The notes under the pieces: generated by a model
The model's input: only the letters and a program-made list of their open reading frames with translations
The model's database searches: none
What the model was told of the DNA's origin: nothing
Translations under genes and position numbers: made by a program
NCBI GenBank assembly: GCA_016176405.1
Contig: JACOXG010000013.1
Coordinates: 398-64,397, forward strand
Reading direction: 5' to 3'
Source of the DNA: Candidatus Daviesbacteria bacterium
GTDB taxonomy: Bacteria > Patescibacteriota > Microgenomatia > Daviesbacterales > UBA10151
Length of the DNA stretch: 64,000 bases
Shown here: positions 44,500 to 64,000 of the stretch, piece by piece
How positions within the stretch are numbered: the first letter of the stretch is position 1
How the letters are laid out: each line of letters opens with the position of its first letter

Positions 44500-45348
44500 T
44501 TATTTGGTGCTTGGAGTTTTGAATTTGCCGACGAAATCGGCCATTCCTCCCCAGCCAGCAATTCGATGCTGCTGAATAATCCCTAGTATTGTATAGGCAT
44601 TCCAATAAATTGCAAGTCCAACAGGAAAAGTGAAGGCAAAATAGCCAATCATAATTGGCATCAAGAAAACCATCTGAGATTGAACCGCTGACATACTATC
44701 CTCCATACTCTCCTTTTCCTTCTCCTCTTTGGGTGAATCTGAGGGGTAATGTTTAATCGGCCTTGGCAAGGTCATTTTTGATTGAACAAAGGTCAAAAGA
44801 GCAGTGATTAAGGGCACAGATACTAAAGATATGCCATATTTACTAAAGTCGGAAGGTTTAGCTCCCAGATTTAGCCCAAAAAAGTTGGGATCCGGAAAAT
44901 TATCAAGATGTAGCCAGGGAAAATATAAAATAGAATTAATCCAGCCTAAATTGCCATTTTGCATCCCAGGCAAAATATTAATAATAGCCTGATAAAGACC
45001 AATAAAAATTGGTATTTGTATCAAGGCTGGCAAGCACCCCCCAGCTGGATTTACCCCATGCTCTTTATATAAAGCCATTTGGGCAGAAGCCATAGCCTGT
45101 TTATCATCTTTATGTTTTCTTTTTAACTCATCCAAGTGGGGTTTTAAATCAGCCATTTTCTTGGTAGCTTTAATCTGAGAAGTCATCACAGGCCAAACCA
45201 ACAGCCTAATTAAAACAGTCAAAATAATCAGAGCAAATCCTAAGCTACCGGGAATATGAAGAGAGTTCAAACCATAATAAATCAAAAGCAACAAATTGAT
45301 AATTGGTATTAAAAATAAAGTATTAAAAATATCGCCTATTGCACCCAC
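44500..45348 (-). CDS. yidC: membrane protein insertase YidC (short Oxa1-type)
   Basis: GCLPALIQIPIFIGLYQAI conserved TM2/TM3 region; five-TM core; downstream of rnpA and yidD. Confidence 0.85.
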   Translation of the reverse strand: MGAIGDIFNTLFLIPIINLLLLIYYGLNSLHIPGSLGFALIILTVLIRLLVWPVMTSQIKATKKMADLKPHLDELKRKHKDDKQAMASAQMALYKEHGVNPAGGCLPALIQIPIFIGLYQAIINILPGMQNGNLGWINSILYFPWLHLDNFPDPNFFGLNLGAKPSDFSKYGISLVSVPLITALLTFVQSKMTLPRPIKHYPSDSPKEEKEKESMEDSMSAVQSQMVFLMPIMIGYFAFTFPVGLAIYWNAYTILGIIQQHRIAGWGGMADFVGKFKTPSTK

Positions 45349-46216: not shown

Positions 46217-46247
46217 ATCATCCTGAGGAGTCTGCGACGAAGGATCT
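46217..46247 (+). repeat. copy of the dispersed repeat immediately upstream of the dnaA start; its GAAGGAT end supplies an SD-like sequence
   Basis: atcatcctgaggagtctgcgacgaaggatct, then catcc ATG. Confidence 0.5.
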
Positions 46248-46252
46248 CATCC

Positions 46253-51596: not shown

Positions 51597-53393
51597 TTAT
51601 GCATTTTGTCTTGCCAAAATTTCCTGTGGGCTGGATGTAATCAGCTCATGTTCTTTAGGGGAAGCCACTACGCTCATGGCTACATGGGTTGATCCGGCAA
51701 AAAATAGGCCTTGGCCTACCCCGGCTGATAATAGCAGTCTCTCCTCTCCTTCCGACAGATAAAAAACCTTAGATAACAGATCAATTGAGGCCGGAGCTTG
51801 TTTAAGTAGGACCTGGATAGATGAGTTGGAAATAATTTCTTTACCCCTCTCAGTTGCCAAAAAATCCTCCACATCTTGGGTTATGGTGGTTAGTCCCAGA
51901 TAGTATTTTCTGGCTCTTTTGGCCATATCCACCAAAAAGTTGGCTGAATCTTCATTTCTCATCAAATACCAGGCCTCATCCACAATTAAAATTCTTTTTT
52001 TGAGCTTAGTTCTGATTTTAGTCCAGACATAATCCAAAATCATATGGATGGCCAAAGGTCGGAGTTGATCAGCCAAATCCCGTACCGAAAAAACTGTGAA
52101 GGAGTTGGTTAAATTGATGTTGGATTGGGAAGAAAAAATGCCCATCAGGGAACCCCTGATAAATCTTTCCAATCTGGCAGCCAGCTCTATGGCTGGTCCC
52201 TCCTCCATGCCCACTAAAATTTTATAAAGATCCTCCATCAAAGGAGGCTGTCTATTTTGAGTTTTTGGATCATCGGTGATACCTTTAAGCTGATAAGTTT
52301 GCTTTAGGGCTCGATCCAAAATGGCACCTTCTGTGGCAGTTAGTTGTCCCAAGACCAATTTTAGAAAAGTAGTTAAAGACAAAATTTTTCGTCCCAGCTC
52401 ATTTTCTCCACTTATTTCTGCTGACATATCAAAGGGATTGATCTTAACCGGCGAAGATGAGGAAAAATTAATAAATTCTCCTCCCACTGCCTGAGCTAAA
52501 GGTAGATACTCTTGCTCAGGATCAATCACGATAATTTCTGTCCCAAACATCAAAGAACGTAGCGCTTCCAGCTTGACAAAGTAACTTTTCCCAGCACCGG
52601 ATTTAGCAAAAACCACCGAGTTGGCATTTTCCAAAGTAAACCTGTCAAATAAAATCAAAGAATCATTGTGAGCATTGATACCATACATAATGCCTTCATT
52701 AGCTGTGAGCTCCGATGAGGCAAAAGGAAAAGTGGTAGCCAAAGAGGTAGTATCCATGTTATGAGCCAGGTTAAGATAATCAACGCCGATGGGAATAGTT
52801 GATCTAAAACCATCTTCCATCTGTAAAGTGGTGGGTCGGGCAGTCATCGACAGGGAGGCAAAGGTTGATTCCACCAGTTTGGAGGTGTTATGGAGTTCTT
52901 CTTTAGATAAAGCAGGTACTGTGATGTATAAGGCAAACTGAAAAAATCTCTCCGCTCCTCTGACCAGTTGATCTTGTAAGGCCCTGGCATCTTCCAAAGC
53001 CACCTCAACTGCTGGATCAACAGCTCTGCCTCTTTCCAGATCTGTTTGGAGCGTTGCCTCCATCTCAGCAATCTTTCTTTTTAATTCATCCAAAACCCCA
53101 GCTGATTCTGAAGGATAAATGAACATGGAGATAAATAGGGAATGATCAAAGGAGATTAATGGTTCTAGCCAGTTTGGTTCCACAAATCTGGGGTAGTTTG
53201 ATACAAAGTAGCTTCTAAAGAAACGATCATTGATGTTGAGCTCATTAAAGTCCACCTCAATCTCTGCCGGGGCAATCACATCAGAGATGGTCAGTTGATC
53301 TTCCCTAGCCACTTCTTCTGGCTTGGTCTTTTTGAATAAACTCGATAATTTCACGTTTTTTGAATCCTTATCCCTCCAACTCCTCCACCACAA
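51597..53393 (-). CDS. VirB4/TraC/CagE-family type IV secretion ATPase
   Basis: Walker A FAKSGAGKSYFV, Walker B RILIVDEAWYLM, and the conserved VirB4 C-terminal region (GLTTITQDVEDF). Confidence 0.8.
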   Translation of the reverse strand: MWWRSWRDKDSKNVKLSSLFKKTKPEEVAREDQLTISDVIAPAEIEVDFNELNINDRFFRSYFVSNYPRFVEPNWLEPLISFDHSLFISMFIYPSESAGVLDELKRKIAEMEATLQTDLERGRAVDPAVEVALEDARALQDQLVRGAERFFQFALYITVPALSKEELHNTSKLVESTFASLSMTARPTTLQMEDGFRSTIPIGVDYLNLAHNMDTTSLATTFPFASSELTANEGIMYGINAHNDSLILFDRFTLENANSVVFAKSGAGKSYFVKLEALRSLMFGTEIIVIDPEQEYLPLAQAVGGEFINFSSSSPVKINPFDMSAEISGENELGRKILSLTTFLKLVLGQLTATEGAILDRALKQTYQLKGITDDPKTQNRQPPLMEDLYKILVGMEEGPAIELAARLERFIRGSLMGIFSSQSNINLTNSFTVFSVRDLADQLRPLAIHMILDYVWTKIRTKLKKRILIVDEAWYLMRNEDSANFLVDMAKRARKYYLGLTTITQDVEDFLATERGKEIISNSSIQVLLKQAPASIDLLSKVFYLSEGEERLLLSAGVGQGLFFAGSTHVAMSVVASPKEHELITSSPQEILARQNA

Positions 53394-54126
53394 ATGGGTG
53401 AGCTCTCGATGATTGGCTTCTAATTGGAGCTTGGTCTAATTTTGTTTCAGCTGCTATTTGAGAAACCTGGGCTGGTGTGACAGTTTCTAAAGGTTTGGGA
53501 GTACTCTTAGGCTCCTTTAAATTAACAGGCATGGTGGGTAAAGCTGGACTGGGTTTGGTACTGTAGTTGTAGATATTAAAAAAAACTTGTAAAAGTTTTT
53601 GGTTATCAAGCTGGGTGGCTTTCAAGCCGATTCTAGACAGCTGTCTCAAAATTTGATCTCGCCTGGGTAGTAGGACAGTTTTTATTTTTTGCTCCAGAGC
53701 TTGTTTTGAGGCAATCAGCCCCAGTTCCAATTTAAAAAGGGGCACCACTATATAAAATTTTTTATCTAAAACTTCATTTTCTTTGATGGTGGATTGGATA
53801 AATTGCCGGTAATGACTCATCATCTGAGATAACAGTTGGTTAGTTTGACTCTTTTGCGCCTTATTCAACAGCTCAAGATAGGATGAGATGTCCAATCTTT
53901 CTGAATCGATGACAATTTGGATACTAAAGGATAGGGAATTTAGCATTTGGGCAAAAGCATCAATGATGGCCATTTGCTCCCGGCCAGAAAGCAAACCAAA
54001 ATTAACAGCCGAAACTTGCAAAATTAAGGCTCCGCCACCACCTTTTAAAATGACGATTCCTTCCTGAATATCAGCTATGGGCAGATGATTTTGGGTGGTA
54101 TTCATGTTAGCTTTTAGCCACCACAT
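53368..54126 (-). CDS. hypothetical T4SS-associated protein (26-nt overlap with the VirB4 gene; possibly a detached VirB4 N-terminal module)
   Basis: 252 aa, no TM; coupled to the downstream ATPase gene by overlap. Confidence 0.35.
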   Translation of the reverse strand: MWWLKANMNTTQNHLPIADIQEGIVILKGGGGALILQVSAVNFGLLSGREQMAIIDAFAQMLNSLSFSIQIVIDSERLDISSYLELLNKAQKSQTNQLLSQMMSHYRQFIQSTIKENEVLDKKFYIVVPLFKLELGLIASKQALEQKIKTVLLPRRDQILRQLSRIGLKATQLDNQKLLQVFFNIYNYSTKPSPALPTMPVNLKEPKSTPKPLETVTPAQVSQIAAETKLDQAPIRSQSSRAHPFVVEELEG

Positions 54127-55183
54127 TAATGGGTGGTAAAACAGAACCTGTCAGTTCAATCTGTAATACATCAAAGGCAAAATTTTCCTTCTCCAGCTCC
54201 AGAGTGTAGATGCCATTAGGCAAAGGAGTAGAGCCACTAAATTGACCTAATTTGTTAGTTTTTAAGGCTCTGACTGGTAGACCCTCTTTGTCATAGATGA
54301 CTGCCACCACTCCTTCTAAATAATTGCCCACTGTATCTTTGACCACCCCATTAATCACATTAGGAAAAGTAGTCAGGGCCACCTGAGCAATCTTTGGTCT
54401 AATTGGGATGACTACCTTAACTTTTTCCTTAGGTGGCTCTTTTTCCGAAGGTTCCGGAGGCCCGGAAACATTTTCCAGTTTTTCCTTGACCGCCGATGCT
54501 TGAGTGATCATGTTTTTTAAATCAGCCAGGATCTTATTGACTTGCTGGCTGTAATCAACTGGTATGGGAGTAGGTTTGGTAGCTTCAGCCCTAATTTGTC
54601 CTAAAGTTCTTTCTGTCTGAATAATTTTTAGCTGTAAATCTTGAGCCTGTTTGGCCAAGTCAACTGTTTTTTGCAACTCTTCGCCGGTGGGCAGTTGGGA
54701 GACAGGTTTAGAGAGCTGAGGAGTTGGTGGAGTAGGTTCTTCGGGCACCTTTTTCATCTGAGGACCGGAAGTAAAAACTAACAATCGGCTGCCAAAAAGA
54801 GGATCTTCAAAATAGCTTTTACCTGCTCTTATCCAAGATCTTTTGGTGGGAGAATAGATGGCTTTAATGAAGGCTGCAAACCAGTGATCAAGGGGTCTAG
54901 ATCCTATTGGTAAAAAAGCAAAAGCTACTCCTGAAAGGGCCGATAAAACAATCAAAGGCCAAGCCAGATAAGGGTAAGGAGCGGCTAAAAAGACAAACAT
55001 TAAATAGGCCAAACCAACACCGGTTGCCAGGTAAAGAAACTGTTTTAAAGTCATATCCCCAATCAGCCTAAACTGAAATGAGGTGACATTTTGTGGAATA
55101 GGATGTGGTTCCATGACTATAAGGTATGCTACAGCGTGAAAAATTACAGGTAAAGAGGTACAAAGTAGGTCATTTAAGGGCAA
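54107..55183 (-). CDS. T4SS-associated membrane protein: VirB3-like two-TM N-terminus + C-terminal carboxypeptidase-regulatory-like beta-sandwich domain
   Basis: TM pair (FLYLATGVGLAYLMFVFLAAP / LIVLSALSGVAFAFLPI), a Pro/Glu/Lys linker, and a C-terminal GVVKDTVGNYLEGVVAVIYDKEG..NGIYTLEL CarbopepD_reg-like region. Confidence 0.4.
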   Translation of the reverse strand: MPLNDLLCTSLPVIFHAVAYLIVMEPHPIPQNVTSFQFRLIGDMTLKQFLYLATGVGLAYLMFVFLAAPYPYLAWPLIVLSALSGVAFAFLPIGSRPLDHWFAAFIKAIYSPTKRSWIRAGKSYFEDPLFGSRLLVFTSGPQMKKVPEEPTPPTPQLSKPVSQLPTGEELQKTVDLAKQAQDLQLKIIQTERTLGQIRAEATKPTPIPVDYSQQVNKILADLKNMITQASAVKEKLENVSGPPEPSEKEPPKEKVKVVIPIRPKIAQVALTTFPNVINGVVKDTVGNYLEGVVAVIYDKEGLPVRALKTNKLGQFSGSTPLPNGIYTLELEKENFAFDVLQIELTGSVLPPINVVAKS

Positions 55184-55315: not shown

Positions 55316-55480
55316 AAAGGGAATCCAGTGTAAATCTGGAGTCCATGAAGTGGATCGCTTAGCGATCACTTCAGGACCATGAAGTGAACTTTGCTCTACT
55401 TCATGGCTGTGCCGCAACTGTTAAAGCCAGGAGACCGACCACTCCGCCATCTGGCGGATTCTTTCCCGAGCAGGAGCAAT

Positions 55481-56782
55481 ATGCCAGTTGAAACCTTAGA
55501 ATCATCATATATTCCTCCACCTGAAATAGCCGAAATTGCCATCCCAGAAGTCTTTGTAGAGGCTTTTAGAGAAGAGCCTTCACCTTTAGAATTAAGATCA
55601 ACCAAAGTATCTGAAAGACAGTGGTATTTGTTGCCTGGAACAGGATTTGATGTTAGGGGGCAAATTAATAAACTGATCAGAAGTTTAAATTCTCACTTGG
55701 ATGGGAAAAATCAAGCACAAGTAGTGAGTGAATTTGTCGAAGATACAGCTGAAGATATGAGACATTTTGTAATTGAGTATCCCTTGCAAAGATTAGTTTT
55801 CCCTATTTTTTTAGATCTTAGACAAGGTGGAGTCAGAAAATTAATCGCCCCCCGCTATAGTAACCAGACTTATTCAGATTTGATTTCTTCACAAGAAAGA
55901 AGAGGATCTGTTAAAAGTTCAGTTCTTAGAATAGAGAGCCTGATGATTGATGCTCCTGAGGGTACTATCGCTGGATTCATCAGTCCTCCGGGCTGGACAG
56001 ATCTAGAGGATAGACAAGGAGGGAAGATTGAGTTTGTTGATAATCAAATTTACCTGTATAAAAAGACTAAGACCGGGTTAGAGGCAAGAACAGTTAGGAC
56101 TGATCTAACTTTGGAGCAAAGCGAATTATTACTAGAACAGCTCAACTTCACAAGGGAGAATCCTCCTAATTTACATACCCCGGAAGAAAGAATTATGACA
56201 GTGGTGGAAAGCGTTTTTTACTTACAAGGTCAGACCTTTGAAACTGTGGTGGATCTTATAAAAACAACCAAAGGTAGTGAGCTCGCTTATAAGGACAGAT
56301 CTTTTGAGGAGATTTATTATGATTTGAGTTTGGGTGATGATCTTTTGGACTTTAATTTGGATGTCCAAAAGTATGCTGAGCCAATCATTGAACAGTTTAA
56401 ACTTTTGGCTAGGAACAAATTGGTATATATTTCAGATCAAACTTTAGATGAGCTAGAAATGGAGTTGGGAAAAGCCATATTAAGAATACATAAAGCAATT
56501 AAGAGCAGACATTCTTCTGATGAAATGATTAGACCTATTCCCTATATGACAGAAACAGATTTTAAGAGAGAACTGGTACAACTGCAGGTAATACCAGGAT
56601 GTAATGGAGGAAGCTGTAGACGTTTTATTATAACAGCTTCTGGTGGTGTTAGAGAACTGGTAGGTAATTCAAAGTCCATATCCCCAGATTTTTATGAGTA
56701 TTGTCCTGCTTGTGATGAGGAAATTAATTGTACTGTTAAGGTTGGTCAATCATGCCCCAAATGTAATAAAGTCAGAATGTAA
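55481..56782 (+). CDS. hypothetical protein with a C-terminal multi-Cys zinc-ribbon-like module
   Basis: The ATG at 55481 has AGGAG 5 nt upstream; the ORF-track start at 55391 lacks an RBS and overlaps a GC hairpin. The C-terminus reads CNGGSC...CPACDEEINC...CPKCNK. Confidence 0.45.
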   Translation: MPVETLESSYIPPPEIAEIAIPEVFVEAFREEPSPLELRSTKVSERQWYLLPGTGFDVRGQINKLIRSLNSHLDGKNQAQVVSEFVEDTAEDMRHFVIEYPLQRLVFPIFLDLRQGGVRKLIAPRYSNQTYSDLISSQERRGSVKSSVLRIESLMIDAPEGTIAGFISPPGWTDLEDRQGGKIEFVDNQIYLYKKTKTGLEARTVRTDLTLEQSELLLEQLNFTRENPPNLHTPEERIMTVVESVFYLQGQTFETVVDLIKTTKGSELAYKDRSFEEIYYDLSLGDDLLDFNLDVQKYAEPIIEQFKLLARNKLVYISDQTLDELEMELGKAILRIHKAIKSRHSSDEMIRPIPYMTETDFKRELVQLQVIPGCNGGSCRRFIITASGGVRELVGNSKSISPDFYEYCPACDEEINCTVKVGQSCPKCNKVRM

Positions 56783-57003: not shown

Positions 57004-60000
57004 ATGTCTAATGCTGAAAGATTAAATATGGCAGATGCTATTGCAACAGAAACAGCTGAGCCAAAAGTAGTGGTTACTTCTGAGAAAGACAGCTACCAAA
57101 AAGGCGGCATAATGAGGTGGCTTAAAAGAGGTTCAAAGGCTCAAGTTTTGATGAAACCAGGTGAATTTGAACCTCCCACAGCAACTCAAGATTCTCAAAT
57201 TGAGAATGTGCATGCTCGGAATCAACAAGCAGCTGAGACATCTTCCAAGAGAGAACATATCCTAAAATTACCTGGTTATGATCCAAATAAAGAATATGAG
57301 ATTAGAGAATTGGGGAATGCTGTAATTATTGTTGATCCAGTAACAGGGAAAGAGATAGGTATATTACCAAGAATTGCTGGAGGTAGCCCGGATATACCAG
57401 ATTGGATTACTGAAGCAGCCAAGAGTAAGCCTTTGAGGTTACAGGAAGCTCAAGAGCTTGATCAAATTTATTCAAGGGTTGATCGTTCTAGACTTCCTGG
57501 GCATCAGGTTGGTGAATTAGACCGCATGATTCAGGCAAATCAGAATGAACTCAATACCCTTCAGAGAGAGGTAGAGCAACTGTTTGAAGAAGCAAGCAAT
57601 GACAATATCTTGAATTTTGTCATAAATGATGTAAGAGCTGCTTACATTAAAGCCATTCAACCACCGCCAGCTTCCATTTGGGAAGCGCAACCTCCAACAG
57701 GCCGAGAAATTGATTTGAAAAATTATCAGGAAACATTTTGGGATTTAGGATACGATGTTTTGCGCGATTTATTTTTAAGGGGGGCGGTCGGACCTATTGA
57801 CATAAGAGCGTTACGAGCAAAGTATGAAGGTTTGGGCAGTTATATAGCCTCAAGAGCGGCTGTAGCTATTGATAAGGATTTAAAAGGATTACCATTATCA
57901 CCATCGACTGAGTTAGGAGATCGTATTCTTGAGGGTGTCAAAAGGGAACATGAATATGCAGAAAGCAGAAGAAGAGCAAGAGCCAGTGCTGATGAGATGC
58001 TTAGATATAGTGACTGGAGAGAACGCTTTGATTTTGACTGGGCTCAAAATAGGCCGGAGTTGAGAGCCTCAGTTTTTGCCTGGCTGGAGAAATTTGTTGC
58101 CCATTTACCAGAAGCAACAATAGATGAACTTAACAATGAATCACTGACTTGGAAGCGTAATGCTATCAGTGCTCTGGAAAAAGCTGCCAATAGGCTACGA
58201 ATTTCAGAAAAAGAACCTTTTTACAAAGAACTTAAAAGTACTATTGAAGCATATGTTGAAGTATATCGAGGAGCAAAGTTTTTGGAAACTGATGGTGGGC
58301 TTGAGGCGGCTACAATTGCCTTGGAAGAATTTGCCCATAATTTTAATCCTAAACATGATGCAATATATTTAGGTAATGCTAAATCTGCCATTATTCAAGC
58401 CTTTATGGCTAGAAATCATGGGGCCATATCCGCTAGCACCGTACCCATCACAAGAGATACCGCTCCTACGGGCGCAGCCATTGAAACTATTGAGAAACCT
58501 CAGGCAGGAGACTTGGAAGAGTTTAGAGGTAATATAGAAGAGCAAGCAAAACAATATGCAGCCACTCACCAGTTATATATCAGGGAAGCTGATTTTGAAA
58601 CAAGAATTAGACAAAGTAACGGGGGTTATAGTTGGGATGATGTTATCGAAGACTTATTACTCGAAGATAGAAGGGGTATGAATGCCGCTAATGCTTTAAC
58701 AGACCCGATTGCTCAAGCTGAAGCTATAGCCAGAGTAGTAACCAGAACAGGTGTTTTCCAAAGAATTAAAGAAAGGTTGGATAGAGAAGATGAAGCGAGA
58801 GATGGAAGAAGCTTTGCCGAACTCACAGATGATGAAAGAAGAGAAGAGATTAGGTTTAGGATCAGAACAAAGATGTTTCTGACAGGATATAGAAATCTGG
58901 TAGACGACATTGATCTTACCACAGATCCGGTAGACAAAGACAGGAAATTATGGAATTGGCTAAAAGGATACAACCTAAGAAGAGAAATCCAGGGTCATAC
59001 GTTGTTTTTCCCCAGCTACTGGGATGAAGTCAGATTAAGCATAAATAGACCAACCAAATTAGTAGATAGGGCTCTCCAAGAAATCAATAAAGCTGAACAA
59101 ATGAGGAGATTGAATCCCATTCAAGCAGAAGCCATCCGAAACAGTATCAAAAACGAAATGAGAGCTAGAGGGGCGGATAAAGAAGTTGACAGAATTGAAT
59201 CCTTAATAAGTCCGCTTAATAGAGACAAGGCTTTATGGAGATGGGTTGATAAGTATAATGCAGCCAGAAAAGACCGTGGGGAGGAACCTTGGTATGCCGG
59301 TGATTGGGATAGAGCTCTACCTGAAGACGAGCTTGAGGCCATGATTGAGGAAGTAGATCCTTTTAGAGGGGTATTACGCATTGATGGCTTAACAGATCAA
59401 GAGATTAATACAGCCATAGAAAATCTTAATTGGACAGATCCCGCACAACCCAATTTTATTGGAAGTGGATTAACTGCTGAACAAATTGAAACAGCCAAGA
59501 GAGAAATGTTGGAAGATGCTTTATTTGATAAACAACAACGAGAAACTGAGGCTGAACGAGCTTACAATATTAACAGAGCTTACCAGAAATTCTTAGGAAT
59601 TGATGCCAGATGGGGTGGTATGTCTATAAGGGAGATTAATGATGAGGGAGAGATGTTCCTGAAAAATGTCTGGGAGAAAGCTGAAGAAATATTGAAGGAG
59701 AAGATTGATAATGAGGAAGAAGAAACAGAAGAAAAAGTAGCTGCCCTTGAAGCAGCTTTAAGAGCCAGAGGGGGTTTAACAGATGCTGAGATAGAGACAA
59801 CTCTCATTGAAAGAAGAAGGTTATTAAGAAGGGATTCCACATTCGGAGCCACCTTGGCGCTTAGGGAAATAGGCATTGCTAATGATTTACCCATTTGGAA
59901 TTACTATTACTATAACGACCCTCAACGTATTCAAACTTTTGCTCCCTTGGTGGGATATACACATAATGATAAACCACAAATAATCGATCTTTTGGACAGA

Positions 60001-61419
60001 GGCAGAAGGGAAATGAGAGCGGTTTGGGATTATCTGGCAGATACTTACATGGATGGTAGAGTCTTGATAGTCAGAGATGAGCCGAATGCTGATGTTAATG
60101 AAAATGGTCAGCCAAAAGACTTTCATCAAGAAAGATGGGATCGGGCCAGGGTCATTAATGAGGCTGGAGTACAAGCCCTAAGAGAAGTATTTGAATCAAG
60201 ATTTATGTTGTCAACTAGCGGAGGGATAGAAGTAGTAGATTTAATCTCTAAGATAGGAGACTTAGGCATATATGATTTGCTTTGGGAAATGGGTTGTAAG
60301 GATTTTAGGGAATTTCAGGGATTTATTAAAAGACGAGATGAAGTGGAACTTAGAAGACAAAGTTTTTGGAATATTAGAGAATGGAGAGATCCCATTTCTT
60401 ATGCTAAAAGACTAAGAGGTGGAGGTGGAGCAATAGTATATCTTCGAGGAGGAGAGGTAAAAGGGCAACAACGTGAGCCAGGCGTACTTCAGGAACCGAT
60501 GATGGGTGCTTATAAATTTAGAGATGAATATGTGAATCGAGAGCATTGGGTAAGTAGTGACATAAGGAATAAACTAGATCAGACTACTGCGGAGTTTAGG
60601 AGAATACTCCAAGAGATAATTAATAATGACCAGAACCTAAGCAAACTTACTGAACAGGAGCGAGATAAACTGATAGAGGTAGGAGCAGGAGTGTTAATTA
60701 CCCTTATAAAATTCATGGATGCCCTGAGGTATAAGATGAATAGAGCCGGACTGGCTCCTAAAAACTGGAAATTAGACAATGAGCTGAACTTCAGACATTA
60801 TGCTGTGGAGTTATTAAAAAGGGTGTCAATTGAAGGCCGAGCAGCTATCTTAGGTGGCGGTGAAAAATTAGGGGAGCAAGATTTAGGTTATGCTGTACAA
60901 GGTAGAAGTCCACTGACTATTAAGATATTCGAAAATTTTTTCAGAACCAGCTCCTACCATATCTTAGTAGAAAAAGATCGTAAAGTTTTTGATCAGATGG
61001 GACAAGAGGTTAAAGCCAGGATGGATACTAAAAGAAGAGAGCTAGATGCTCAACCCTTGCCTGTCGCAATTCAAACAAAAATTAATAATAGGAGAAATCG
61101 TTTAAGAGCCTTGGGTATGGGTACAAGGATAGATAGATTAATAAATCGGGGAGTACTTTCACAATCAGAAATTGATTCATTAACAGATATTCATTTACGA
61201 TTCGAAATGGACAACAAAAGAAAAGAGGAGTTGAAGTCTAGAGGGGTACCTGATGAAGAAATAGATTCATTTCTTAATTTAAACCAAGAGCTTCGGAGAA
61301 TGAGGAATCAATACATAAATGAAGAGCTCCATAGGCAGTTTTATGGGGAATGGTCTGCTAAATTGGCAGAAGTTGCCGAGCAGTTAGAGAAGGTCGGATC
61401 GTATAAACTTGGGGTGTAA
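57004..61419 (+). CDS. giant (1471 aa) highly charged Glu/Arg/Asp-rich hypothetical protein, no signal peptide or TM, no motif I recognise
   Basis: A single uninterrupted ORF with a strong RBS; no Walker or HUH motif recognised; embedded in the T4SS-like cluster. Confidence 0.6.
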   Translation: MSNAERLNMADAIATETAEPKVVVTSEKDSYQKGGIMRWLKRGSKAQVLMKPGEFEPPTATQDSQIENVHARNQQAAETSSKREHILKLPGYDPNKEYEIRELGNAVIIVDPVTGKEIGILPRIAGGSPDIPDWITEAAKSKPLRLQEAQELDQIYSRVDRSRLPGHQVGELDRMIQANQNELNTLQREVEQLFEEASNDNILNFVINDVRAAYIKAIQPPPASIWEAQPPTGREIDLKNYQETFWDLGYDVLRDLFLRGAVGPIDIRALRAKYEGLGSYIASRAAVAIDKDLKGLPLSPSTELGDRILEGVKREHEYAESRRRARASADEMLRYSDWRERFDFDWAQNRPELRASVFAWLEKFVAHLPEATIDELNNESLTWKRNAISALEKAANRLRISEKEPFYKELKSTIEAYVEVYRGAKFLETDGGLEAATIALEEFAHNFNPKHDAIYLGNAKSAIIQAFMARNHGAISASTVPITRDTAPTGAAIETIEKPQAGDLEEFRGNIEEQAKQYAATHQLYIREADFETRIRQSNGGYSWDDVIEDLLLEDRRGMNAANALTDPIAQAEAIARVVTRTGVFQRIKERLDREDEARDGRSFAELTDDERREEIRFRIRTKMFLTGYRNLVDDIDLTTDPVDKDRKLWNWLKGYNLRREIQGHTLFFPSYWDEVRLSINRPTKLVDRALQEINKAEQMRRLNPIQAEAIRNSIKNEMRARGADKEVDRIESLISPLNRDKALWRWVDKYNAARKDRGEEPWYAGDWDRALPEDELEAMIEEVDPFRGVLRIDGLTDQEINTAIENLNWTDPAQPNFIGSGLTAEQIETAKREMLEDALFDKQQRETEAERAYNINRAYQKFLGIDARWGGMSIREINDEGEMFLKNVWEKAEEILKEKIDNEEEETEEKVAALEAALRARGGLTDAEIETTLIERRRLLRRDSTFGATLALREIGIANDLPIWNYYYYNDPQRIQTFAPLVGYTHNDKPQIIDLLDRGRREMRAVWDYLADTYMDGRVLIVRDEPNADVNENGQPKDFHQERWDRARVINEAGVQALREVFESRFMLSTSGGIEVVDLISKIGDLGIYDLLWEMGCKDFREFQGFIKRRDEVELRRQSFWNIREWRDPISYAKRLRGGGGAIVYLRGGEVKGQQREPGVLQEPMMGAYKFRDEYVNREHWVSSDIRNKLDQTTAEFRRILQEIINNDQNLSKLTEQERDKLIEVGAGVLITLIKFMDALRYKMNRAGLAPKNWKLDNELNFRHYAVELLKRVSIEGRAAILGGGEKLGEQDLGYAVQGRSPLTIKIFENFFRTSSYHILVEKDRKVFDQMGQEVKARMDTKRRELDAQPLPVAIQTKINNRRNRLRALGMGTRIDRLINRGVLSQSEIDSLTDIHLRFEMDNKRKEELKSRGVPDEEIDSFLNLNQELRRMRNQYINEELHRQFYGEWSAKLAEVAEQLEKVGSYKLGV

Positions 61420-61433
61420 TTTAAGGATGAATA

Positions 61434-63212
61434 CTAAGGTTTTTTGAGCCTCCACTTCAAAGGATTCCAGGTAGAAGCACTTCTATCTATAGCTTGAAAT
61501 ACCCCAGGTCTAACAGGGCCATACTCAAATCCTCCCGTAGAGGGATCGAAACGATATCCATACTCTCCAAAAATACCCCTCTTTATATTTCCTGAAGCTT
61601 CTGTGACAGCACCAGTTGACTGCCCATAATATGTTCGACCGCTTGCTACACCACCGGAAATTTCCTGTCCTAGAAATTGTCCTGCCTGACCCATTCTACC
61701 AATAGTACTAACTACAATGTCTGGAATTTTGGGAAGTGCCATTAATGCCCCAAAAGCCAAAAGAAGATTAATGAAATTTAAATCCAATCCTCCAAGCAAT
61801 GGAAATGTCTTTTCACCTGTGATTTGAGTATTAGTTTGGGCGGAAACAATAAAACTATTGTTATCTACATAGTTTGATTGTGAAATTTTTAAGGGATAGT
61901 CATTTTTTACAATGCCCGGACCTAAAAGAAAGGCCACAAAATAAAATACCGCCAAAACTGCAGGGAATACTAATATATTTGCCAACATATTTAATATCCA
62001 GGCAGTTGCTATACCTTGCCTTCCTGGTAAGGCTGCTGCCAGAAATTGGAAGGGAGCACTTATTGTCAGAAAGATAATCGTCAAGTAGGTTGTTAGAAGC
62101 CTAAGCAATAACTTTAACATCTGGTAAATTAAGGCCAAGGTTGCTACAAAGCTAATAATGAACCCTAAAAAGAATGTGGGGGCGCCTGCCCCAGCCCCGA
62201 TTGCTATTAAACTAACGGCGGGACCTAAAAATAGACTAAGAGGACCCAGAGCGGCAGGTACACCTCCTGCCAAAGGTGCTATGAGGTGAGCGGATAAGAG
62301 TCCTGCTACTATTCTTAAGGTACCTTGAGCATCGCCTAATTTATCCCAAACAGATCCTAAAGCCTCAGATGCTCTCTCTTGTGTGACTATTCCTACAAGG
62401 GGGCTAAATATAGATAAAACATTCTCTCTGGAGATTTTATTGACCAAATTTGTTCTTTCTGGGTCATCTGTTTTTCCTTGGGCAGCGGCAAAATAATAAC
62501 CTACCATATTTGTTCCCACAAAGGCCATATCTGAAACCAGGCCTGCTAAGAAATAACTAAAGGTAATTAAAATTAATCCAATCACCAATCCTGGTAGAGC
62601 TGCCTGAGCAGTAATGACTGTTTGAGGATTAATTCTTTGTCTAAACATCACCATTAGCCCAATAATCACAAAAATAATGGTCATAATTACATAAGAGATA
62701 TTTCTGGATACCTGCCATAAGGCTAAAATAGGACGTAATACTCCCTCTCCGGATCCTACCACTTGAGCATTAACCTGTTTCACTACTCTAAACTGATCTC
62801 CAAAGGAAGCCAGGTAATCAACAGTTCTAACAGGCGGATTCATGTATAAAGCTGTAATTAAAGAGGTGGTTGTTCCCAAAGCTCCGTTAGATAAATTGGT
62901 TTGGGATAAAATAGGAACTCCCTGAATTGCTCCTTGCGCATTTTTAGTGATCTGATAAGTCAAACATGGTTGGCCGATAAAGGAAGAGCCAACAGTTAGA
63001 CAGGAAAAAGTATGAAACATGTTGTGGACTAAAAGATCTGTATAAAGGGGGGAGGTAGGAGAGATAGAGGTGGGAAGTTGGAGGTTGGAAGATGGATATT
63101 GAGGTGGGAAGTTGGAGGTTGGAAGAGCACTGGGAGTAGCAGTTTGAGCATTAGCAATGGGAATATTAAATATTAAATAGCAAATAGTAAATAATGCCAG
63201 TACCACTGTCAT
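61434..63212 (-). CDS. VirB6/TrbL-like polytopic membrane protein with an N-terminal signal peptide and a Pro/Ser/Thr-rich extracellular segment
   Basis: Likely start at MTVVLALFTICYLIFNIPIANA|Q (signal peptide); the ORF track extends to 63308 through a repeat-element copy. At least 8 TM helices arranged as in VirB6/TrbL; sits next to the pilin-like and VirB4 genes. Confidence 0.5.
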   Translation of the reverse strand: MTVVLALFTICYLIFNIPIANAQTATPSALPTSNFPPQYPSSNLQLPTSISPTSPLYTDLLVHNMFHTFSCLTVGSSFIGQPCLTYQITKNAQGAIQGVPILSQTNLSNGALGTTTSLITALYMNPPVRTVDYLASFGDQFRVVKQVNAQVVGSGEGVLRPILALWQVSRNISYVIMTIIFVIIGLMVMFRQRINPQTVITAQAALPGLVIGLILITFSYFLAGLVSDMAFVGTNMVGYYFAAAQGKTDDPERTNLVNKISRENVLSIFSPLVGIVTQERASEALGSVWDKLGDAQGTLRIVAGLLSAHLIAPLAGGVPAALGPLSLFLGPAVSLIAIGAGAGAPTFFLGFIISFVATLALIYQMLKLLLRLLTTYLTIIFLTISAPFQFLAAALPGRQGIATAWILNMLANILVFPAVLAVFYFVAFLLGPGIVKNDYPLKISQSNYVDNNSFIVSAQTNTQITGEKTFPLLGGLDLNFINLLLAFGALMALPKIPDIVVSTIGRMGQAGQFLGQEISGGVASGRTYYGQSTGAVTEASGNIKRGIFGEYGYRFDPSTGGFEYGPVRPGVFQAIDRSASTWNPLKWRLKKP

Positions 63213-63233
63213 CCTGAGCGCAGCGAAGGATCT
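63208..63233 (+). repeat. copy of the dispersed repeat overlapping the start codon of the VirB6-like gene
   Basis: gtcatcctgagcgcagcgaaggatct. Confidence 0.55.
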
Positions 63234-63348
63234 CAATATTAATCTAGAGATTCTTCGGCCTTTGGCCTCAGAATGACACTTTATGTCAGTTTTGAGTTTG
63301 GACAACATACTTTAAGAGTAAACTAAATAAGCTGTAAATGTCAAAGAT

Positions 63349-63690
63349 TTATCTTGGACAAAACCATTTGGTGGGATCTGCTTTGGCATTTGGATCACCA
63401 CATAAAGCAAAGATATTAAAAACAGTTACTTCTATGCCGGTAAAGGCTTGGATTAGCTGTAAAATAATCCAGGCGATGGCCAAAAATAGAGCTCCCAAAA
63501 GGGCCCAAGTCACTGTTTGATGAGCAGCTTGAATGGCTTTGGGTTCACCACCGCTAATTAAATATTTAATCCCAGCCCAGACCAAAAAGGCCAGCATAGC
63601 TACAAAAGCCAGTCCCACCACCACAGAAATGATGCTGGTAAAAACTTGCTCTATTTCTACTAAACCCGCAGGTGAAGGACCAGGATTCAT
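63349..63690 (-). CDS. VirB2/TrbC-like pilin-like small membrane protein (paralog 1)
   Basis: 113 aa; hydrophobic helix, short charged loop (SGGEPKAIQAA), second hydrophobic helix; paralogous to the adjacent gene. Confidence 0.45.
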   Translation of the reverse strand: MNPGPSPAGLVEIEQVFTSIISVVVGLAFVAMLAFLVWAGIKYLISGGEPKAIQAAHQTVTWALLGALFLAIAWIILQLIQAFTGIEVTVFNIFALCGDPNAKADPTKWFCPR

Positions 63691-63693
63691 GTT

Positions 63694-63969
63694 TTAGGGA
63701 GCCGGAGTGGGGATGTTGAAATTACGGATATCAAACCCTAAGAATAACCCGGCTACCTGGAATAAAGCAAAAGCAATGGCCAAAACAGCCAAACCAATTA
63801 AGGCATTAATAATTCTGCCTCTGGCCTTACCAACAGCCTCTTTGTCTCCTCCTGAGGTAATCCATTCAAATGCTCCCCAAACTAACATGGCTAAAACTAC
63901 CAGTACAGCCACCATAAAAGCCAAAACAAGAGTTTTTTGGATAAAATCACCTAAAGTGGAAAATCCCAC
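63694..63969 (-). CDS. VirB2/TrbC-like pilin-like small membrane protein (paralog 2; the start may lie beyond the window edge)
   Basis: Helix, SGGDKEAVGKA loop, helix; the reading frame stays open upstream to position 64000, so the N-terminus is uncertain. Confidence 0.45.
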   Translation of the reverse strand: MGFSTLGDFIQKTLVLAFMVAVLVVLAMLVWGAFEWITSGGDKEAVGKARGRIINALIGLAVLAIAFALFQVAGLFLGFDIRNFNIPTPAP

Positions 63970-64000
63970 ATCACGTCCATCTACTCGGGGTCTTTCTATG

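Follow-up and report, generated by a model that had tools for sequence, protein, structure and literature searches.

To our knowledge, the T4SS of the Patescibacteria is the only T4SS that is essential for the growth of its owner, which takes place on a host bacterium, and its pilin array sets it apart from other monoderm systems. Arrays of two to 11 VirB2-like pilin genes have been described in Patescibacteria, notably in the Microgenomatia, with the T4SS located near dnaA; in that survey, Quinonero-Coronel et al. (2025) applied PF18895 together with PF04956 to 3,035 genomes (PMC12102498). In the T4SS cluster of Southlakia epibionticum, Wang et al. (2023) found several predicted pilins to be essential (PMC10633639), and six essential pilins are described for this species (PMC10633639, PMC12857230). 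Among other monoderm systems, PrgF of the plasmid pCF10 is an essential VirB2-like protein that has been modelled as a pilus standing on a PrgH/VirB6 pentamer (bioRxiv 10.64898/2025.12.18.695078). Patescibacteria T4SS pilin arrays were thus already described between 2023 and 2025, and the finding reported here is the correct identification of a known feature: one more Daviesbacteria example, which leaves the general picture unchanged.

The window (the whole 64-kb stretch of DNA that was analysed) contains a replication-origin neighbourhood with rnpA, yidC (44500..45348), jag, dnaA and dnaN, followed by a T4SS locus. At the end of this locus are two adjacent small genes that probably encode membrane-inserted VirB2-type pilin subunits of a Patescibacteria (CPR) T4SS, and that would be the last two members of a six-gene array. 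The features of the locus are as follows.

51597..54126, minus strand: VirB4 ATPase, encoded in two overlapping ORFs.
53368..54126, minus strand: N-terminal part of VirB4, 252 aa, with a weak TraC_F_IV match.
51597..53393, minus strand: P-loop part of VirB4, 598 aa, with PF19044, AAA_10 and DUF87 matches.
54107..55183, minus strand: PrgI/VirB3-like T4SS protein (PF12666 PrgI, 38.4 bits against a gathering score of 27), kept in related loci.
55391..56782: conserved protein of unknown function, between the PrgI/VirB3-like gene and the gene for the 1471-aa protein.
57004..61419, plus strand: 1471-aa protein without assigned function, whose gene and the VirB6-like gene converge.
61434..63308, minus strand: polytopic membrane protein with a signal peptide, candidate divergent VirB6 platform, directly downstream of the pilin array.
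63208..63282, minus strand: predicted stable RNA hairpin or palindromic element that follows pilin 1 and overlaps the annotated start of the VirB6-like gene.
63349..63690, minus strand: pilin 1 (orthogroup 1, the last gene of the array), 113 aa, ATG start.
63694..64000, minus strand, open at the window end: pilin 2 (orthogroup 2), a 147-aa protein of which the window covers the last 101 codons.

Pilin 1 is identical to NCBI HYS94_03395 and the 147-aa pilin 2 corresponds to HYS94_03400; both are annotated as 'hypothetical protein' in a Candidatus Daviesbacteria MAG, in a contig of 66,991 bp. Within the window, pilin 2 was listed as an ORF of 91 aa with a GTG start (63694..63969), but this start is an artefact of the window edge, because the reading frame runs without a stop to the edge of the window. 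A search for the exact protein yielded three short Logan contigs (~1.1 kb), among them L001, which is 100% identical to the window across a 701-bp overlap and reaches 346 nt further; on this contig the ATG of pilin 2 lies 137 nt beyond the window, and the true product has 147 aa. Orthologues of the window pilins elsewhere share 60-80% identity with them, and therefore the pilin frames, not antisense ORFs, are the coding ones. The two genes share a frame and are parted by TAA-AAC; a readthrough or fusion of the two pilins was considered and rejected, as the gap between orthogroups 2 and 1 varies from -32 to +381 nt in other species.

The first-pass annotation had read the pair as adjacent small proteins sharing one architecture, in which a hydrophobic helix, an SGG(E/D) loop and a second helix follow one another, and had called them candidate paralogous T4SS pilins. 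Both ORFs are real and lie on the minus strand, and the quoted loops are present in the proteins named, SGGEPK in pilin 1 (63538..63555) and SGGDKE in pilin 2 (63838..63855). The two proteins are indeed paralogues, with 36% identity over 67 aa (E 2e-12), far above chance level. Pilin 1 has a short acidic N-tail, a TM helix, the SGGEPK loop, a second TM helix and a C-terminal tail with a Cys...Cys pair. It has no signal peptide: in a 30-sequence alignment its orthologues begin directly at MGPxPAGL, with no leader, and S46, G48 and K51 are invariant while the tail Cys pair is near-invariant. Pilin 2 has a hydrophobic N-terminal leader (MGKILNLLIGVGFLSIAFTIFQIGG) and a linker of ~35 aa, followed by a TM helix, the SGGDKE loop and a second TM helix. 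A 19-residue Kyte-Doolittle scan gives two hydrophobic spans per protein (peaks 2.75/2.37 and 2.89/2.46), and the AlphaFold2 model of pilin 1 (52-sequence alignment, pLDDT 82) is a hairpin consisting of helix 10-45, loop 46-49 and helix 50-84. Lys and Arg are clustered in the interhelix loop of both pilins, making it net-basic, and acidic residues are found in the N-tail of pilin 1. This charge pattern fits a predicted topology with the N-terminus out, the loop in and the C-terminus out, and the conserved Cys pair in the tail of pilin 1 likewise fits a predicted extracytoplasmic C-terminus.

The pilin assignment is supported by the family PF18895 (T4SS_pilin; curated gathering score 26.6 bits), which matches pilin 1 with 30.1 bits and the visible part of pilin 2 with 37.0 bits, both above the cut-off, and matches all 52 relatives scanned above the gathering score. 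The two TM segments and charged loop of this family are found in both proteins (by Kyte-Doolittle and, for pilin 1, AlphaFold2), as is its T4SS-cluster setting, with the VirB4 and PrgI-like (PrgI/VirB3-like) genes 8-12 kb away on the same strand. Small two-TM proteins of an unrelated kind, such as holin-like proteins or accessory subunits of transporters, could resemble pilins by composition alone; the weak sub-threshold matches of our proteins to DctQ, DUF2721 and other membrane families, and the lack of a significant match to solved pilins, would be expected if they were of this kind. We find this explanation hardly credible, since every other Pfam family compared with the two pilins scores far under its own threshold and none comes near it, while PF18895 exceeds its threshold in 52 of 52 relatives, NF045849 (see below) is matched by the same 52 over nearly its full length, and strict synteny with T4SS genes was seen across the Daviesbacteria-clade loci that we inspected. 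Of the two outcomes that the first-pass annotation had named as counter-evidence, a topology at odds with two TM helices and strong matches to an unrelated small membrane protein family, neither was observed.

How VirB2-like these pilins are is a separate matter. The earlier description of the pair as VirB2/TrbC-like agrees with their architecture and genomic context, but finds no counterpart in sequence comparisons. PF04956 (TrbC/VirB2) gave no match at E<=1 for either window pilin and matched 15 of the 52 relatives weakly (best E 1.1e-4). With hhalign, the pilin family profile compared with nine annotated, genuine plasmid VirB2/TrbC proteins reached a probability of 0.7%, and a search of PDB sequences with the family profile returned no pilin, solely de novo designed TM proteins. 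Foldseek with the AlphaFold2 model of pilin 1 found nothing in the PDB at E<1; its top match was the archaeal conjugation pilin 8dfu (E 3.2, 15% identity, target-normalised TM-score 0.64, 75 aligned columns), and a two-helix hairpin is a simple fold, common to many unrelated proteins. Sequence homology to diderm VirB2/TrbC is therefore undetectable in this analysis, at the level of the predicted proteins, and we use 'VirB2-like' here for a common architecture and context, without demonstrated homology.

A clearer affinity was found to NF045849, the Mbov_0395 family of pilin-like conjugal transfer proteins. Each of the 52 relatives matches almost the whole of this model with E<=0.01 (best 5e-8), all 52 scores being under its curated equivalog cut-off of 40 bits (16.3 and 22.4 bits for the window proteins). 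Judged by these profile scores, both pilins are related to the NF045849 family and are not members of it, and their nearest named relatives appear to be the monoderm "pilin-like" proteins of Mycoplasma ICEs. This affinity is in line with the grouping of Patescibacteria VirB4 in the MPF-FATA class (PMC12102498) and with the report on PrgF (bioRxiv 10.64898/2025.12.18.695078).

The pair had been taken for two duplicated pilins. Paralogues they are, but they are not just two: the pair occupies positions 1 and 2 of a six-member array. Contig L001 carries, upstream of pilin 2, the 3' end of a third paralogue (…WGAWDWMTSGGDKEKLHAAQQKI…) that belongs to group 3. In three related contigs (L004, L006 and L008), the pilin 1 orthologue ends a row of five or six PF18895 genes, and the array is always followed by a polytopic protein of ~600 aa and then by a convergent gene for a protein of ~1400 aa. 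In an all-against-all BLAST, the array positions separated into distinct orthologous groups, one per position, with 60-84% identity between genomes at the same position and 25-50% between positions, that is, between paralogues. A pilin 1 alignment next served as the query against one genome per GTDB species, a set of representatives to which the source genome does not belong; pilin-domain ORFs were called with an iterated HMM and sorted into six groups, of which window pilin 1 belongs to group 1 and window pilin 2 to group 2. The exact order 6-5-4-3-2-1 occurs in 34 of 51 Daviesbacteria-clade loci (species representatives with a pilin 1 orthologue). Most of the remaining loci are cut by contig ends; the rest are without one member, have an extra weak match or carry additional copies of group 2. 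By homology and gene order, the window pair is thus the tail of a conserved array of six predicted pilin genes, which in the source genome itself was read as far as the third paralogue. The comparison with Saccharibacteria T4SS pilin loci that the first-pass annotation had recommended gave a similar gene number, as the Saccharibacteria loci from the same scan mostly have 5-7 pilin genes, six being the most frequent; per-orthogroup HMMs separated the Daviesbacteria groups by margins of 0-10 bits on the Saccharibacteria pilins, too little for a one-to-one pairing of orthologues.

Tandem VirB2 genes in Bartonella and Anaplasma suggest another role for such an array, namely a variation cassette in which pilins are swapped or diversified to suit different host strains or to evade recognition. 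This has been proposed for Patescibacteria arrays (PMC12102498), and would agree with the strong divergence of paralogues within an array (25-50% identity) and with the local duplications of group 2 in a few loci (L049, L050 and L057). For the array described here we regard it as quite improbable: the paralogues form separate orthogroups whose order is kept in 34 of 51 species, with 50-80% identity between species, and the core motifs of pilin 1 are invariant. Ordered and conserved orthogroups therefore point to old, subfunctionalised paralogues under purifying selection, and not to turnover.

One of these orthogroups is distinguished by its upstream sequence. On L001, the ATG of the 147-aa pilin is preceded, at a distance of 6 nt, by a TTGACA-17-TATTAT promoter motif that matches at 11 of 12 positions. 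We scored such promoters in 37 canonical loci, requiring at least 10 of 12 matching positions and an in-frame start codon 4-10 nt past the -10 hexamer. The promoter precedes group 2 in 28 of the 37 loci and any other group in 0-1 of 37, and the motif cTTGACAag…TAtagT…ATGAAAAAA can be recognised by eye in almost all of them. Within the 64-kb window, about two other real genes have the same arrangement of promoter and start. We infer that the group 2 pilin heads a conserved, essentially leaderless transcript; a literature search for leaderless mRNAs in Patescibacteria found no paper. A conserved, near-consensus predicted promoter before group 2 alone makes the 147-aa pilin the best candidate for the abundant (major) subunit. 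The earlier suggestion that the two proteins are major and minor pilin subunits is plausible; the predicted promoter, restricted to the orthogroup of the 147-aa pilin, lends it some weight.

The first gene of the array, group 6, differs in size from a simple pilin. Its proteins have 330-756 aa and consist of an unannotated ectodomain of 250-680 aa and a C-terminal PF18895 domain; such a protein, with a large ectodomain on a pilin anchor, could be a candidate adhesin.

If VirB2/TraA pili and the PrgF-PrgH model for pCF10 are taken as a guide, a route of assembly can be proposed. In the cytoplasmic membrane, the basic loop of the pilins would face inwards and both termini outwards. Insertion would probably depend on YidC, or follow the reverse signal-anchor mode, for pilin 1, which has no leader; pilin 2 would use Sec and then have its leader cleaved. 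The VirB4 ATPase would pull the pilins out of the membrane, and the VirB6-like platform would be the site where they polymerise, giving a tube or pilus with the loop along its lumen. Such a tube would span the cell wall and make contact with the host bacterium. Its major subunit would be the 147-aa pilin, and the 113-aa pilin (group 1, with the Cys...Cys tail) and the other paralogues would be minor or specialised.

No pilus has been seen for any Patescibacteria T4SS, and the literature calls a pilus a possibility (PMC12857230). The pilins could instead be T4SS components that do not leave the envelope: they would belong to the membrane channel, or to a short stalk that crosses the thin CPR cell wall, perhaps with the six paralogues joined in a hetero-oligomer, and there would be no extended pilus. 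Six distinct and individually conserved paralogues resemble a multi-subunit complex more than a homopolymer, and the pilin genes directly adjoin the polytopic VirB6-like gene, both of which would suit such a structure, as would the fact that a pilus has never been observed (PMC12857230). We nevertheless consider it unlikely, because this family architecture forms pili in all characterised cases, the predicted strong promoter of a single paralogue suggests that this protein is needed in bulk, and an ectodomain of 250-680 aa on a pilin anchor is best explained by display outside the cell.

The preferred reading, that of VirB2-type pilin subunits of a Patescibacteria T4SS, can be extended tentatively to the make-up of the filament. 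It is possible, and we would not put it more strongly, that the filament is a heteropolymer, with six specialised proteins of the pilin family as its fixed components, and not a homopolymer of one pilin: group 2 would provide the bulk, with four minor pilins and one pilin-anchored, adhesin-like protein. The pilin module, with the Mycoplasma ICE pilin-like proteins and PrgF as its relatives, would then have come down together with the MPF-FATA machinery of monoderms and not have been co-opted from diderm systems. The leaderless, disulfide-tailed 113-aa protein would in this case be one of the minor pilins. As far as we know, an organisation into bulk, minor and adhesin subunits is known for type IV and type II pili and not for VirB2-type pili.

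The gene directly downstream of the array had been called VirB6-like, a label that has an indirect link in its favour and is matched neither by Pfam nor by a significant VirB6 fold. It encodes a polytopic protein, of 624 aa as an ORF and of 590 aa as called by NCBI, with a start near 63203. The protein and 39 homologues (40 sequences) have no Pfam match; its AlphaFold2 model is of moderate confidence (pLDDT 67.5, with values of 75-95 in a helical membrane core), and Foldseek against the PDB gave nothing significant, with R388 TrwI/VirB6 chains at E 1.6-6. The link comes from the Saccharibacteria, in which the neighbour of the array has ~1000-1240 aa: one of these proteins matches PF04610 (TrbL/VirB6; E 1e-4, 22.5 bits, under the gathering score of 25.9), and hhalign aligned the Daviesbacteria family with the Saccharibacteria array neighbours with a probability of 93.7% (E 2e-7) over 63 columns, inside the TrbL-matching region. 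Through these extended VirB6-like proteins, the VirB6 label is plausible for the Daviesbacteria protein as a transitive link of moderate strength, in agreement with the report that VirB6 is hard to detect in Microgenomatia (PMC12102498). Its synteny is kept in the related loci inspected, and it has hundreds of homologues in Daviesbacteria/Microgenomates assemblies.

Other parts of the locus are also conserved. The arrangement of PrgI-like and VirB4 genes with the pilins recurs in related loci that reach far enough. The division of VirB4 into two ORFs is kept in L019, L041, L034, L042 and L045, so that a frameshift, a pseudogene and an assembly error were rejected as its cause. The 1471-aa protein has no Pfam match; related loci encode a protein of 1100-1680 aa at this site, L004, L006 and L008 being among those with a large gene there, and sequence homologues are present in seven more loci (L044, L021, L035, L042, L037, L018 and L025). 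The predicted hairpin between pilin 1 and the VirB6-like gene has an MFE of -33.2 kcal/mol (z -3.9), and 0 of 200 shuffles fold as well; it might lower downstream expression. An Rfam scan of 61000..64000 returned no family. A half-site related to this element is found at 46217..46248, upstream of dnaA.

As far as we found, four aspects of the array are absent from PMC10633639 and PMC12102498: orthogroups that keep a fixed order, a promoter before group 2, an ectodomain protein with a pilin anchor, and an affinity that is stronger to the pilin-like proteins of Mycoplasma ICEs. The first three argue against the analogy with antigenic variation drawn in PMC12102498, at least in the Daviesbacteria clade. 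The ordered orthogroups, the single promoter and the ectodomain protein can also help in choosing which paralogue to tag, to purify or to model with the VirB6-like platform.

Compared with known systems, the array shares different properties with each. With the diderm VirB2/TrbC pilins (PF04956; the Agrobacterium T-pilin, R388 TrwL and RP4 TrbC), pilin 2 shares the propilin layout of leader, two TM helices and basic loop, and common to both are the predicted N-out/C-out topology and adjoining homologues of VirB3 and VirB4 with a candidate VirB6; however, the diderm systems have a single pilin, whereas here the organism is a monoderm with six paralogues and pilin 1 is leaderless. The VirB2 arrays of Bartonella and Anaplasma phagocytophilum likewise arose by tandem amplification of pilins in a T4SS locus, but are thought to supply antigenic or host-range variation, while the array described here consists of fixed, ordered orthogroups across species. 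The archaeal Ced/Ted pilins (Aeropyrum pernix, 8dfu) provide the best structural match, a non-significant one (E 3.2), and show a VirB2-like hairpin in a cell that lacks an outer membrane; the Ced/Ted system imports DNA.

Among monoderm systems, the Mbov_0395 family of Mycoplasma ICEs and PrgF(B2) of Enterococcus pCF10 are likewise small two-TM proteins, from MPF-FATA conjugation systems. For PrgF, which we liken to our pilins by its published description, essentiality has been shown experimentally and a pilus has been modelled with the charged loop lining the lumen. Both kinds of system, on ICEs and on the plasmid, are conjugative, employ a relaxase and a coupling protein, and have one pilin gene, in contrast to six chromosomal paralogues with no known role in DNA transfer. 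The six-pilin cluster of Southlakia epibionticum ML1 belongs to the Saccharibacteria, and the array described here to the Daviesbacteria/Microgenomatia, essentiality being known solely for S. epibionticum; the VirB6-like neighbour also differs, having ~600 aa and following the array here, but having ~1000-1240 aa and being divergent from the array in Saccharibacteria. The two clusters are alike in their PF18895 proteins with two TM helices and a charged loop, in having about six divergent tandem paralogues, and in their location near dnaA within a monoderm-type T4SS locus that encodes VirB3/PrgI, VirB4 and a VirB6-like protein.

A near-consensus sigma-70-type promoter is placed between orthogroups 3 and 2 of the six-gene pilin array, both in L001, a contig identical to the window over their overlap and running past its end, and among the related loci L010-L059.

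L001 175..203 (about 64144..64172, just past the window end): near-consensus sigma-70-type promoter, cTTGACAag-N17/18-TAtagT

This promoter precedes orthogroup 2 in 28 of 37 related species; each of the five remaining pilin genes has one in 0-1 of 37. Only 4-10 nt lie between its -10 hexamer and the orthogroup 2 ATG, a leaderless-type arrangement.

Downstream, pilin 2 (orthogroup 2) and pilin 1 (orthogroup 1) share a reading frame and are separated by TAA-AAC alone (63691..63696). Recoding across this junction is not implied, because the spacing is not conserved, ranging from -32 to +381 nt in other species. Between pilin 1 and the VirB6-like membrane protein gene lies a palindrome, with a related half-site elsewhere in the window.

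63208..63282, minus strand: palindromic element of about 75 nt, stable predicted hairpin (-33 kcal/mol, z -3.9), with no match in Rfam
46217..46248, plus strand: half-site related to the palindrome, immediately upstream of dnaA

The hairpin overlaps the annotated start of the VirB6-like gene, and reading through it would give a spurious peptide of the '…SEAKGRRISRLILRSFAALRMT' type.

Other genes of the T4SS (type IV secretion system) locus include a VirB4 in two parts and, between the pilin/VirB6-like and PrgI/VirB4 genes, two proteins that have no Pfam match.

51597..54126, minus strand: VirB4, as two overlapping ORFs (252-aa N-terminal part and 598-aa P-loop part)
55391..56782, plus strand: 463-aa protein
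57004..61419, plus strand: 1471-aa protein

VirB4 is split in this way in five or more related species (L019, L034, L041, L042, and L045), so the two-ORF form is a genuine gene organization rather than a frameshift error. Related loci have homologs of the 1471-aa and 463-aa proteins at the equivalent place, varying in length and fast-evolving in sequence; the two proteins may be uncharacterized T4SS components or substrates.

In related genomes (L004, L006, L008), toxin-antitoxin pairs (MazE/PIN, ParE, AbiEii) and, likewise, AAA_14/DUF4143 ATPase genes are repeatedly inserted among and around the pilin genes; in L008 and L009 such insertions interrupt the array, with no orthogroup lost. The first gene of the array, which lies outside the window, was located in these and other loci.

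L004 6949..7938, L006 6416..7918, L008 1450..2952, L029 3387..5657, and others: first array gene

Its product is a secreted protein of 330-756 aa with a variable, unannotated ectodomain. At its C-terminus, a conserved NPG..TAIGCIHT motif leads into a PF18895 pilin domain, and the protein may act as a pilin-anchored adhesin.

A further gene adjoins the pilin array.

L004 4313..6025, L006 4632..6338, L061 4624..6324, L067 10669..12471: coiled-coil protein bearing a domain of the SpoIID (lytic transglycosylase) type

It is divergent and upstream in L004, L006, and L061; in L067 it shares the strand of the array and lies downstream at a distance of about 400 nt. VirB1 is reported to be mostly missing from Patescibacteria T4SSs; the SpoIID-domain protein could be a functional counterpart of VirB1.
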